DNA of 64,000 bases. It comes from Eledone cirrhosa (lineage: Eukaryota). Of this stretch, positions 11,356 through 58,075 are shown one piece after another; the first letter of the stretch is position 1; each line of letters opens with the position of its first letter. Where the stretch lies: the NCBI GenBank assembly GCA_964016885.1, contig OZ024741.1, positions 126,046,001 through 126,110,000 of the forward strand, written 5' to 3'. Under the pieces are notes generated by a model. The model was not told the DNA's origin. It was given only the letters and a program-made list of their open reading frames with translations, and did not search any database. A program made the position numbers and the translations under genes.

Positions 11356-12003
11356 ACGTTATACTTATTTTACCCTCCCATCTCCAATTAAACCGAACGT
11401 TATCATGACTGTATGTGTGTGTTTGTGTAAATGTATATGTGTGAATGTATGTATGTCTGTGTAAATGTATATGTGTGAATGTATGTATGTTTGTGTGAAA
11501 GTATGTGTGAATGTATGTATATGTGTGTGAAAGTAAGTGTATTTGTGTGAATTATGTCCGTGAGAGTGTATTTTTATGAGTTTGTGTTTGCGCGATTATA
11601 GTTATATACTTATAATAGTTATATACTCATACATATAGACGTATGTATGTGCACAATCATACACGTCAGCATGTAGAAAGTCATAATCTCTCTATCTCTT
11701 TCATGACACACTCTCTCTTTCTATATATATGGCAATTGAAATGGTGGTGGTGGCGACGATATACCGGAAGTGCAACTTTGAAAAGAATTCAATTTCAAAT
11801 TATTTATTTTTACGAAATTATTTTTGTTTACGAAATTTAGTAGATAAATTATGTAATATTCATTCATTATTTATTCAAAGTAATCCAACTTATTTTAAAA
11901 ACGGGATAAAAAAAACCGTACGCAGGTTGGTTTGTTTACTCCGGTGTAATGTAAAATAAGTAAGTCAAACATGTTAAATTTGGTTTCGTTTATTATAAAT
12001 TCT

Positions 12004-12056
12004 CTGCTATGTATATTTCAGTGACAGCTATTATTGGTTGTGACCTCTTCAGGCAG
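12004..12056 (-). ncRNA. Type I hammerhead ribozyme (family A, left arm)
   Basis: Reverse complement of 12293-12345. Confidence 0.7.
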
Positions 12057-12292
12057 TACGAATTAATGTAGAAAGAACAGGTAAACATGGTGTTGAAATG
12101 TGTTCCACTTTGTCAATGCTTCGATATGTCCAGCTCCTGGGTGTGTTCTTAGTCCTCCAGGGAACTGGAATCATATGTTTTCAGTTCCTCGGACGACTAA
12201 CAACACACCCAGGAGCTGGACATATCGAAGCATTGACAGAGTGGAACACATTTCAACACCATGTTTACCTGTTCTTTCTACATTAATTCGTA

Positions 12293-12345
12293 CTGCCTGA
12301 AGAGGTCACAACCAATAATAGCTGTCACTGAAATATACATAGCAG
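12293..12345 (+). ncRNA. Type I hammerhead ribozyme (family A, right arm)
   Basis: ctgc-CTGAAGA-ggtcaca...tgtcact-GAAA-tatacaT-A-gcag; stem I ctgc/gcag; AUA site. Confidence 0.7.
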
Positions 12346-12547
12346 AGAATTTATAATAAACGAAGTCAGATTTAACATGTTTGACTTACTTATTTTATAT
12401 ATATATATATATATATATATATATATATATATATATATATAACTACATGCATAAATAGAGAGTGTGTATGCATACACATTCACACACACCTTTGTGTGTG
12501 TGTGTGTGTGTGTGTGTGTGTGTGTGTGTGTGTGTATGTATGTATGA

Positions 12548-13260
12548 CCCCTTAGCCTTTGTCAAGGCAGAATTCTAGGAGAAGGAAAACTCTGATATAA
12601 CACCTGCAACCCTGATGGTATCCAATGATGTTGACTTGTTCTTCTTCTTGGTAAATATCATCTTGGTTAAGAGAGTGGGACTGGCTTTGTGCAGTGCCTT
12701 TGCTCACTATAAAAGCTTCACAGCACAGGCATTGCTTTATATCTGGAGATCTCTCTGCACTTGTCATCACATGGTACCATGGGCCTTGCACTATGTGTCA
12801 ATAATGGTCACAAGTGTAGTCTTTGTACCAGAGTTTTCAAGTCGCTGGCTGGACTAAAAAGTCACATTCGTTCAGCGCATCGGTAGGGGTTCTCCTACAT
12901 GGATATAAAGTAGTGGCCGTACTCGAAAACGAGTTGGCAGCCACCATGTATGTATGGGAGTGAAGGCCCCCTAGCCTTTGTCAGGGCATTCTTCTAGAAG
13001 GCAACTCAGGAAACTAGGATAACTCCGATATAAAACCTGCGGCTCAGTAGTTACCGATGATGTTGATCTTTTCTTCTTTTCGTGTTATAGCTACTGTCGC
13101 TCAGAGAGTGGGATTGGCTCTGTGCACAGTCTTTCCTCACTTAAAATAATATCTTCACGCACAGGCATTGCACGATAGAATTAATTAATAATTATTAATA
13201 ATGGTATATCTTGCAATGGCCATACTCGATAACGAGGGGCAGCCATCATCATGTATGTAA
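12548..13260 (+). mobile_element. Two tandem non-autonomous RTE-derived elements
   Basis: Duplicated 5' block (12548-12735 vs 12968-13172) with ggagaaggaaaactctga; first copy keeps the C2H2 tail HKCSLCTRVFKSLAGLKSHIRSAH*; shared 3' ends followed by (atgt)n. Confidence 0.65.
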
Positions 13261-13504
13261 GTATGTATGTATGTATATAAACACACACTTATAAAGACGT
13301 GTGTATTTGTATATACGTATATATATATATATATATATATATATATATATATATATATATATATATATATATATGCAAAAGTTCTATTTAAATTGTTGGG
13401 ATACAACAAGCAAATATTTTTATAACTGATATAAAGCACTCGACAAGTATTTGGAGTAAATATACGATATTAACAAATGGAAACTATATTTATAAAACCA
13501 TATC

Positions 13505-13569
13505 TATTTTATTATACATATTTCAAGGATACCATGTTAAATTATGTTATGCTTTCATCAGACAAAATA
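13505..13569 (-). ncRNA. Type I hammerhead ribozyme (family B)
   Basis: Reverse complement of 13731-13795. Confidence 0.7.
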
Positions 13570-13730
13570 CAATATATACCAGTTTTATAAATAAATATTG
13601 ACATACCCTTACAAAATGCAACCGTTACTATTGGAAGACATCGGGATAGACTATCCCGATGTCTTCCAAAAGTAACGGTTGCATTTTGTAAGGGTATGTC
13701 AATATTTATTTATAAAACTGGTATATATTG

Positions 13731-55583: not shown

Positions 55584-56227
55584 GTAATGATTCTCCCCAG
55601 CAACTGTGGTTCAGTTTCATGACGCTTGGGAATGTCTTGACATACCTGCATGCACCGCTTCTTTTGGTCATCGTTCAGTAGCTTCGTTACCATCTTTGCG
55701 CAGATCTTCCGCATGCCCAAATCTTTAGTGATAATCTTCCAAACGCTGTCGCGGATCCATACCGGCTCACTTGCGATCAATCAAGCAGTCAGCCAACAGT
55801 CACCACGTACCACATGCCACACGCACTCAACGTTCGTCTCAGTCCTGCTCGTCGAAGACCTTCCGCTCTGGGGATCGTCTTCCACGTTCTCACGTGCCTC
55901 TATGAACATTTTGTACCACATGAAAACCTGTGAGCGCAACATCACTCATCTTCGTACACTTGCTGCAGTATTCCGAGTGCATCTGATAGATTTCCCCCCA
56001 GCCAGACCAGAAACCTCAGGTTAATTCGTTGCTCTGTGTCCATCATTCGATGGCTTAAAATTGAGGAGTTGTTAACAAACGCACATGAAAAAGCATACAA
56101 TGGTTGCAGAGAACTGAGATCGCAGTAATATACTCTCCGGCTATTACATCATACGGTGTCACAACCTGCTAATCCCTACCCCAGTGATATCTTATACACT
56201 GTCCTCTTACCGTTCTGACGCACCGTG
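55582..56227 (-). mobile_element. Tc1/mariner 5' fragment
   Basis: TA + TIR-like cacggtgcgtcagaa; EDDPQSGRSSTS, ITKDLGMRKICAKMVTKLL, GRIITG. Confidence 0.88.
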
Positions 56228-56242
56228 TATATATATATATAT

Positions 56243-56461
56243 AAATGTTCTAAGAGACTCTAATGTATGTAAAAGGTAAACAGAAATAACAACAGAATCG
56301 TACAGTATATGGAAGGAGTATATTAGGTTAACGCTTGAAATAGCAGGAAGAGGGTCTTAACGTTTCGGACGCTAGTCCTTCATCAGAAGAAAGAATGAGA
56401 AATAAGATAGATTGAAGGGACGAACGGGTTGGAATTGGAAAGAATGTCTTTAGGTTGAAGG
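56243..56461 (-). mobile_element. Solo PLE 3' end / pLTR between (TA)n arrays
   Basis: ~220-bp insert containing a minimal HHR. Confidence 0.75.
56355..56390 (-). ncRNA. Minimal type I hammerhead ribozyme
   Basis: tctt-CTGATGA-a-ggac-tagc-gtcc-GAAA-cg-TT-aaga; ACGT stem III; GUU site. Confidence 0.82.
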
Positions 56462-56789
56462 TATATATATATATATATATATATATATATATATATATAT
56501 ATATATATATATATATATATATATATATATATATATATATATATATATATATATACAATACAAAGAAATATACAGACACATGCGAATACATACATATACA
56601 TGCATATACCCACATATATTCCTGAATTTGAGTGGTGCCAACCTTAACCGTTGTTGCTCTATGAGTAATAGGGACAAAATAATCTGAATGGATTAGATTG
56701 ATTCAATATCAGAGCTATATAATACATTATAAAGAAAGAAGAAACATTAGATATAAATAAAAAGATATAATATACCTAAATTCCTTCAT

Positions 56790-56885
56790 TATCCTCGACT
56801 ACGTAGTTTCGTGGCTATTATGCAAAAACATTACATCATAGAGATGCAGTATTTTTGTGAGGTTTGCCGACTTATCAAGAGGATA
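56790..56885 (-). ncRNA. Type I hammerhead ribozyme, U3-A8 variant
   Basis: Exact inverted copy of 57192-57287. Confidence 0.78.
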
Positions 56886-57191
56886 CCTCATTTAGAGTTT
56901 CAAAACACGTCCGTTGGACGCGAGATAGAATCCCGAGATAGAATCCGGTAGAGTAACCACTGAAGTATAGTGACTGCTGTTAAGCTTACACTAATCACAC
57001 TTCTCGCCCTCCTAGCCAACTCTTCTACGGCCTGGACATAAATACCCCCTCCGCCTTTTGTGGTATTTTTCTCTTGGTTGTAAGAGGCTTAGCTCTGTTT
57101 CTTGACCACTGTATCACGTGATAAGTTCCCCCTCCACCTTTCGGGATTCTATCTCGCGTCCAACGGACGTGTTTTGAAACTCTATTTGAGG

Positions 57192-57287
57192 TATCCTCTT
57201 GATAAGTCGGCAAACCTCACAAAAATACTGCATCTCTATGATGTAATGTTTTTGCATAATAGCCACGAAACTACGTAGTCGAGGATA
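57192..57287 (+). ncRNA. Type I hammerhead ribozyme, U3-A8 variant
   Basis: tatcctc-TTGATAA-gtcggc...gccac-GAAA-ctacgtag-TC-gaggata; 7-bp stem I; palindromic ACTACGTAGT stem III; GUC site. Confidence 0.8.
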
Positions 57288-58075
57288 ATGAAGGAATTTA
57301 GGTATATTATATCTAATGTTTCTTCTTTCTTTATAATGTATTATATATATATATATATATATATATATATATATATATATATATATATATATATATATAT
57401 ATATATATATATATATGTGTGTGTGTGTGTGTGTGTGTGTGTGTGTGTGTGTGTGTGTGAACCGCAGATGAGTATTTAAAAATAAACCTTTTTTTAAATC
57501 AGACAAAGCAATTAGGGTTGAGCTTTATCAAATATTTTTAACCCCTTTGAATGTTTAAAGCAACATTTAAAACATGACTTCATGAAGTTCAGTTCTTACA
57601 TTTAGACTCTTTTCAAAGAATATTGTTTTAGTCCAACACACACATGCATATTGTAAAAGGAGTGTGGTTAGGGATATAAGGGGAGGAGGAGAGGAGGTAT
57701 CTCTAAATAAAAGCAATGTCACCACAAATTCAAACATATTTCTCTCAAATCTCTGTACTAAGAAATCCTGAATCTCCCTGAGAATTATTACATTAAATGT
57801 ACACATGTACGTAGAAAGCTCAGCCATCTGCACGTTAATTTCATGAACAGCTTTATCTATTAATTGAATAAAACTGATACGCTCATCGTCAAAACCGACG
57901 GATGTCCAATCCATCACAGAATACATGGCTAAATCATTACCTTATAAAGATATCATTTTATTGACAGAAGAACATAAATTTATATAAGTGCAAGACATTC
58001 TTAATGAAAATAGATGCGATTCTCTGATATCCTAGCAAGAAGTCTTGTGTGTGATAGCCTATTAATTATAGTAGA

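Follow-up and report, generated by a model that had tools for sequence, protein, structure and literature searches.

Are the short palindromes that interrupt (TA)n tracts in the Eledone cirrhosa genome a new class of mobile element, or are they pieces of a known one? We addressed this question in a 64,000-nucleotide (nt) stretch of the 3.0-Gb genome (assembly GCA_964016885.1, contig OZ024741.1, positions 126,046,001 to 126,110,000 of the forward strand; hereafter the window), where five palindromes, elements A to E, were examined by self-alignment. An initial annotation had described them as a class resembling miniature inverted-repeat transposable elements (MITEs): short, non-autonomous fold-backs from three unrelated families, with outward-facing hammerhead ribozymes, mobilised by the reverse transcriptase (RT) and GIY-YIG endonuclease (EN) of Penelope-like elements (PLEs). 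We infer instead that the five palindromes are not a new element class and that what they add is mechanistic, namely a hairpin at the start sites, twin priming, a likely circular template and a named partner clade. Based on sequence comparisons, we put at roughly 0.7 the probability that the palindromes are two-armed insertions into (TA)n, one arm running to a fixed site X and the other to a fixed tail end, primed twice on one RNA by the RT/GIY-YIG protein of a Hydra-type PLE.

Ends, fold points and parents of the palindromes

Genome searches returned about 1,500-1,700 first-look candidates per family, with 40 scored and 30 loci fetched for each. Arms of family B were followed at 30 position-ordered tail ends of 3,977 matches, of which 14 were scored as having an inverted X arm (two more, L222 and L223, probably have one and are uncounted). 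Family E was followed in 50 of the 51 clusters from the first 100 of 7,545 matches, one segmental duplicate being excluded; the E and B samples come from the first 54 and 46 Mb, respectively, of one contig. Copies of each family end at either of two fixed places. The first, site X, lies 48-56 nt 3' of the predicted hammerhead cut (about 75 nt in E), and the second closes a tail that extends beyond X for 91 nt in B and C, 97 nt in family A and 166-170 nt in E. Four of the five palindromes (A, B, C and E) are asymmetric, with a tail on one side, and D is X/X. Two arms are present at 23 of the 30 B loci, and 21 of these 23 are X/tail, the tail end being forced by the query; one B locus has an internal deletion (L025) and another runs beyond the fetched sequence (L026), its end at X having been shown separately. 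Among 29 distinct family A insertions, a script scored 12 as X/tail, and two more (L035 and L056) resemble these by eye. The E sample divides evenly into two-armed (25/50) and one-armed (25/50) insertions, the former comprising 21 X/tail, one tail/tail, no X/X and three with a damaged end.

The fold point differs from copy to copy in all three families, and the only junctions seen to recur are near-identical ones at a hot spot and those of one segmental duplicate, L178/L181. Fold-backs with the same two ends range from 0.14 to 3.9 kb (137 bp in L216, 1.4 kb in L017, 3.6 kb in L150 and 3.9 kb in L093). The identical terminal inverted repeats and fixed interior of MITEs or fold-back DNA transposons are thus not found, as ends are unequal in most copies and junctions vary. 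A MITE-like class, in which short non-autonomous fold-backs move as palindromic units, would fit the abundance of short palindromes lacking an open reading frame (ORF), the symmetry of D and the similar sizes of the B palindromes, the last of which follows from arms stopping near X-185. However, kilobase-long copies with RT and EN have the same ends, half of the E insertions are one-armed, and the E palindrome is just one insertion form of a head-to-tail 590-nt monomer. Furthermore, a transcribed palindrome would fold into one long hairpin in which only a single hammerhead is in sense orientation; judged from their arrangement, the two hammerheads of a palindrome cannot act together on one transcript. 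We regard the MITE-like reading as largely refuted already and very improbable.

The arms lead instead to parents that encode RT and EN, which bears out the attribution to PLE machinery in the initial annotation. Family B runs upstream, via an untranslated region (UTR) of about 1.6 kb, into an ORF. In one copy (L099) this is a single open frame of 709 amino acids with RT and, at its C terminus, an EN of GIY-YIG type, containing RWR, DKT, FIQLD, YRDD, a CxCX5C linker (CNCRNKSNC), CDLC and CRH; RWR, DKT and CNCRNKSNC were found by pattern, and CDLC and CRH by eye, a combined pattern for those two giving no match. The frame therefore shows the diagnostic motifs of the Hydra clade as given in the portion of Craig et al. 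2021 (PMC8557442) at hand: RWK-like, DKT, the CxCX5C linker, CxxC and CxH flanking E and N, and no CCHH. The L099 frame is open from close to the ORF start, and the 5' end of the ORF lies in L144/L145. The family A parent has CNCRTPILC, CNLC and CRH. It is represented with both RT and EN at three loci (L151, L150 and L128), and in L151 the arms of this family are collinear with the two domains. Atlas neighbours of the parent ORF are eukaryotic clusters, with HTH_animal (in 25-31% of members of the top three) and GIY-YIG on part of them. The A and B parent ORFs are 45-53% identical and a tail motif is common to both families, so that A and B are related and the proposal of three unrelated families falls.

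One locus (L144) holds a whole element that reads (TA)11, an inverted tail-less arm, a 5' pseudo-long terminal repeat (pLTR) with tail leading into the ORF, the 3' UTR, pLTR, tail and (TA)21. It has the insertion structure of EN-containing PLEs, namely a partial tandem pLTR, an inverted 5' copy, a tail at one end, a pLTR hammerhead and a (TA)n target. By sequence, A-D are the pLTR (3') ends of ORF-bearing PLEs of Hydra type; their insertion structure is already known for PLEs, and the Hydra families are new. "Non-autonomous" thus probably describes family E, an ORF-less 590-nt unit, but not A-D, which are stumps of ORF-bearing elements. The initial annotation had itself set against its proposed class the case of arms that map to the 3' ends of longer PLEs with randomly distributed fold points. 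Since the A-D arms lie at the 3' ends of longer ORF-bearing elements, this is the case for A-D; fold points vary, but 11 of the 14 tail-less (X) arms of B stop 160-190 nt upstream of X, as do two of the 14 tail arms.

Several other observations concern these families. In the family B ORF (L099:203-2329), an Asn-rich stretch lies between the RT thumb and EN; a stretch of this kind is described for rotifer Penelope families in the part of PMC3846280 at hand. Decayed Hydra-type copies of a family F occupy 15700-19378 and 53419-55584 (both minus), with RT at 18439-19378, EN at 17740-18144 and 54836-55584, and a long 3' UTR. Their predicted hammerhead cuts fall after 15761 and 53482, and they end in X and (TA)n. 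A lone tail-less family A arm at 19624-19825, about 80% identical to element A, ends in X and TA.

Element A (11918-12397, minus), a pLTR of family A, has its tail-bearing arm on the minus and its tail-less inverted arm on the plus strand; the tail is cut to about 35 nt (11918-11951), the fold lies near 12172-12176, and X, at about 12395, is followed by (TA)n. Element B (13374-13835, minus), a pLTR of family B (parents L144 and L099), begins at the left with its 91-nt tail, and its tail-less inverted arm reaches X at 13835. Family B also includes element C (15003-15451, plus), with a tail-less inverted arm starting at 15003 and a tail-bearing arm to 15451. Element D (36458-36811) is from a divergent subfamily of B (about 80% identical), lacks a tail and has X at or near both arm ends. 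Hammerhead cuts on the minus and plus strands are predicted after 12008 and 12341 in A (core CTGAAGA...GAAA, stem I of 4 bp), 13513 and 13787 in B, 15051 and 15312 in C, and 36508 and 36761 in D.

All five palindromes are real and lie about where they were first placed, with arm identities of 95.5, 99.2, 96.6, 97.2 and 92.6% for A to E. Their head-to-head design holds insofar as the arms are inverted, but the one-sided tails of A, B, C and E had been partly cut off. A descriptor scan confirmed a type I hammerhead in 10/10 arms and found three elsewhere, giving 13 in the window versus 0-1 per shuffle (30 shuffles). A stricter scan (stem I of at least 5 bp, C3/G8 core only) found nine and missed A and E, the latter having a U3/A8 core. 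Hammerhead families are absent from the top 150 of the 264 Rfam matches, and an inverted-repeat finder reported nothing on the five elements; microsatellites dominated the output of both. Stem I is family-specific in sequence, yet base-paired in every family. The proposed distance of about 45-55 nt from hammerhead to outer end fits the tail-less ends of A-D (48-56 nt from the predicted cut) but not E (about 75 nt) or the tail ends (139-151 nt). Likewise, folding of the elongated stem II exceeds that of shuffled sequence in E (matched by 0 and 1 of 200), is marginal in D (0.065) and is no better than shuffles in A, B and F (0.3-0.5), and the palindromic stem III is TATATA in most A copies but an imperfect TATACA in the copy in the window. 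The absence of ORFs is upheld, with a longest ATG-started frame of 62 amino acids across the elements, as is the (TA)n target, which bounds all element ends except the damaged left end of A. The outward orientation of the hammerheads would simply reflect the origin of both arms from one and the same pLTR. A lone type I hammerhead with a 5-bp stem II and a palindromic stem III (CAGCTG) lies at 40241-40289 (minus).

That palindromes arise during assembly or library preparation is extremely improbable. The junction of E in the window is bridged by no contig or read, among short contigs and restriction-site-associated DNA (RAD) reads only. However, one-sided tails are reproducible, there is subfamily structure and the arms are aged. 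In addition, in raw RAD reads from three other samples, aligned to the B end, 5,675-8,301 loose ends continue into (TA)n at X, and joints between opposite strands recur at matching positions across several runs.

Proposed twin priming on one RNA and a hairpin at the start sites

How does a fold-back with two different ends form? At five loci (L040, L043, L057, L214 and L224) the arms do not overlap. Thus, neither arm is a copy of the other, which suggests that the two were primed separately. The X arm is longer towards the 5' end than the tail arm at 10 of 14 B loci, and likewise in the E element of the window. Across 22 loci, B arms differ by 1.15% within an insertion versus 4.11% between insertions, and arms share 50 variants, against a permutation mean of 3.8 and maximum of 19 (2,000 permutations). 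Such sharing within an insertion points to one RNA or one source, and conversion could contribute. In the literature searched we found no report that takes non-overlapping arms and shared variants as a sign of two primings, and no paper on a twin-priming mechanism for PLEs, as judged by titles and abstracts.

In the self-priming model of Arkhipova et al. 2013, for which PMC3846280 argues in the part at hand, the first complementary DNA (cDNA) folds back and copies itself, which produces the inverted arm. Junctions that are often hairpin-like, with short inverted filler, speak for this model, as do variants common to both arms. On the other hand, a fold-back copy cannot exceed the copied strand or fail to overlap it, as would be needed at the five non-overlapping loci and at the 10 of 14 where the X arm reaches further 5'. 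Self-priming may explain a minority of copies, and is improbable as the general route. Under the twin-priming reading that we prefer, a Hydra-type RT/GIY-YIG protein would use both nicked target strands as primers, each starting its own round of reverse transcription on one shared RNA, and the two cDNAs would extend towards the RNA 5' end and then join head to head. The template of A and B would be linear, with a putative 5' end about 220 nt (A, a figure from a score-biased sample) or about 185 nt (B) upstream of X; run-off at this end would yield the 350-480 bp palindromes of A and B.

A short TA-like stretch marks each start site. RCTC begins 3-9 nt further 3' and is separated by 6-50 nt from RTNGAGY, with which it could form a stem. 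This hairpin occurs just 3' of 11/11 start sites with downstream sequence at hand, representing six families or subfamilies plus the E1 and E2 subfamilies of E, and is present twice in E and twice in B. In element C it is at 15361-15392 (plus; ACTC...GTCGAGT), in the tail and directly 3' of site X. The 4,250-nt B element contains three matches and the E2 monomer two, every one at a start site. In shuffles the hairpin appeared at a given site in 0.4% of cases and at both sites in 0 of 20,000. By eye, it is also seen in the part of the PMC8557442 supplement at hand: twice at the 5' end of the published Hydra-1_Ajap, before the ORF, and once in the tail of the next sea-cucumber record, the one before Hydra-1_Crog. 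Three further matches to the hairpin terms in the same material are unrelated. No report of a hairpin at start sites was found in the literature searched, with most subscription papers and Repbase outside the search. The hairpins would be binding signals of the Hydra-type protein that set the two start sites.

Family E, a ribozyme unit without an ORF

Element E (56556-57341, minus) belongs to an ORF-less tandem unit, a putative retrozyme. Its tail-bearing arm is at 56556-56936 (minus) and its longer, tail-less arm at about 56946-57341 (plus), ending at X, with U3/A8 hammerhead cuts predicted after 56797 (minus) and 57280 (plus). The 166-nt tail (56556-56721, minus), absent from the element as first described, opens with the hairpin GCTC...ATAGAGC. 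The unit wraps round as a head-to-tail monomer of 580-591 nt with a type I hammerhead in each, and exact matches genome-wide number 7,545 for the stem III region and 6,310 for the core. The E1 and E2 subfamilies are 74% identical; both keep the hammerhead core and a long stem II, although the latter differs in sequence between them. Neither the 30 best matches nor the 50 position-ordered insertions were seen to continue into an ORF. The first 100 matches include 35 same-strand gaps of 585-607 nt, 14 head-to-head pairs and no tail-to-tail pair within 1.2 kb. Judged by these features, E is probably a non-autonomous retrozyme, with a PLE insertion footprint.

The arrays are uniform. In a set of 18 arrays, the divergence between monomers is 0.37% when they lie in one arm, 0.39% when they lie in opposite arms and 2.24% when they come from different arrays, and variants in columns with at least four monomers are fixed (18) or singletons (19), with one intermediate. 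One array (L225) has nine shared variants, six of them in no other of the 18 arrays. Unlike B, with its stop, the 5' ends of E (n = 67) are distributed uniformly over the monomer (Kolmogorov-Smirnov p 0.42). A test for clustering of these ends at the hammerhead cut gave no support (8/67 within 20 nt, p 0.09). Uniform arrays without a preferred 5' stop are expected if one monomer was read repeatedly at insertion, and a hammerhead-processed circular RNA is the simplest such template and the likely one. Such a circle would be read round repeatedly, yielding uniform arrays with as many as about 5 plus 3 monomers, and E would borrow the Hydra-type protein in trans. No report was found, in the literature searched, of array uniformity and an absent 5' stop as a sign of rolling-circle copying.

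Arrays of E could also arise with no circle involved, either by copying of linear multimeric transcripts or, once inserted, by local satellite-like amplification with gene conversion (local amplification is proposed in the part of Li et al. 2026, bioRxiv 10.64898/2026.07.22.740005, at hand). Homogeneous source arrays would likewise yield homogeneous daughters, an enzyme that jumps repeatedly between cut linear monomers would leave the pattern of a circle, and the few 5' ends near the cut site lean the same way. Yet the arrays are dispersed and bounded by two start sites and (TA)n, and their uniformity spans both inverted arms. Gradual conversion should leave intermediates, which account for 1 of 38 variants, and the private variants fixed in 7-8 monomers of L225 would need a single-monomer bottleneck. 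We consider these routes unlikely, though far from negligible. On balance we lean, by a narrow degree and on sequence patterns, towards a fuller model in which the doubled Hydra hairpin, kept as far as sea-cucumber families, positions a dimeric RT/EN at two start sites, and a 590-nt hammerhead circle with both hairpins is copied by rolling-circle twin priming. If true, this model identifies which elements mobilise an animal retrozyme and what template they copy, and accounts for PLE tails and inverted repeats together.

Several points weigh against these interpretations. The hairpin definition was drawn post hoc from these sites, those of E among them, and comes from related families, which makes 11/11 an overstatement of independence. 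In two of the 11 (the tail ends of B and E2), the ACTC/GAGY pairing is not the minimum-energy structure. A second hairpin was not found for family A by pattern searches for a tail-to-ORF continuation, of which two gave (TA)n-ended copies and one ambiguous locus (L266). The X/X structure of D is not predicted by a strict model with one of each start site. The Hydra-clade placement of the A-D parents is likely, on motifs rather than an RT tree; a Pfam scan of the parent ORF gave no family and a PDB sequence search no meaningful match. Between E and 12 Hydra or Neptune-like loci, alignable similarity was found only in simple repeats, and the genome has other PLEs that target (TA)n, such as one with a Neptune-like ORF in L091, whose clade is a second possible partner of E. 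Finally, transcription, self-cleavage, the circle and the RNA 5' ends are predictions from sequence. The Neptune-like PLE ORF itself (L091:2466-4780 and 1523-1991) encodes RT, a CxxxxCxxC linker and GIY-YIG, with an inverted partial copy upstream.

Neighbouring repeats and known systems

Other repeats share the window with the palindromes. A dispersed repeat of 140-430 bp, 70-95% identical and partly tandem, recurs at about 15 places between 3247 and 51146 (including 4602-4944, 30872-31312, 33687-34116 and 42505-42858) and is probably a short interspersed nuclear element. There is also a minisatellite with a 30-bp unit (9072-10024), a 600-bp direct duplication (24469-25046 and 27744-28352, 93%) and an inverted pair of a dispersed repeat (14278-14563 and 29522-29816, 93%). 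Elsewhere, the flanks of L025, L034, L038, L048, L054, L066 and others contain many sequence-unrelated short palindromes in the same (TA)n tracts, which serve as nesting sites. Some of these neighbours lack an obvious hammerhead, and they are probably fold-backs of other PLE families.

For annotation, palindromes of this type belong under PLE pLTR insertions, not MITEs. The genome supplies a short RNA motif as candidate signal, start sites mapped exactly, an RT/EN frame that is open and a small natural substrate (E), to which an existing in vitro PLE assay is applicable. In L1 twin priming, two target ends prime on one RNA, which results in a 5' inversion. The insertions described here differ in that the second priming site has a fixed position, read-through usually makes the arms overlap so that a palindrome results, and a poly(A) tail serves neither primer.

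The remaining comparisons draw on portions of the cited sources, in which the origin of PLE tails and inverted repeats and the mobiliser of retrozymes are named as open. The inverted 5' copy with a one-sided tail has been published for PLEs (PMC8557442; PMC3846280), and Penelope-13_HM is listed with an inverted 5' copy (PMC8557442). A-D resemble the Hydra clade of PMC8557442 in their C-terminal EN, RWK-like, DKT and CxCX5C motifs, absence of CCHH, pLTR hammerhead, (TA)n targets, inverted 5' copy and one-sided tail. They differ in a tail of 91-97 nt versus 30-40, a 3' UTR of about 1.6 kb, the very common short solo-pLTR fold-backs, and the start-site hairpin, of which the portion at hand makes no mention. 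Cervera and de la Pena 2014 (PMC4209133) described opposite-strand hammerhead pairs 100-700 bp apart and ascribed them to truncated PLEs. The PLE hammerheads in that study are alike in being type I, with a long helix II, a palindromic helix III and a U3-A8 variant; the ends and tail asymmetry of the pairs, unmapped in the portion at hand, are mapped here.

The in vitro work of Frangieh et al. 2024 (PMC11167929) on Poseidon PAc showed that two internal start sites flank the tail and that both strands of the DNA are cut and extended from them, with a predicted dimer and uncleaved RNA as template. PAc starts in an AC-rich loop that is non-homologous to the target, whereas the starts described here are at TA-like stretches that match (TA)n, upstream of a conserved hairpin. 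E is like animal non-LTR (long terminal repeat) retrozymes in its tandem arrangement, its lack of an ORF and the single type I hammerhead of each monomer. Its 590-nt monomer compares with 170-400 nt in PMC7229834 and falls inside the 51-972 bp range of bioRxiv 10.64898/2026.07.22.740005. A PLE partner and a circular template have been proposed for retrozymes in these two papers, the circle in Cervera and de la Pena 2020 (PMC7229834), and derivation from PLEs in Li et al. 2026. The arguments of the retrozyme papers are co-occurrence and similarity of pLTRs, whereas in E the footprint of PLE insertion is itself visible, with two start sites and head-to-head arms, along with the Hydra-type hairpin twice and uniform arrays; the portion of the preprint at hand contains no such footprint evidence.

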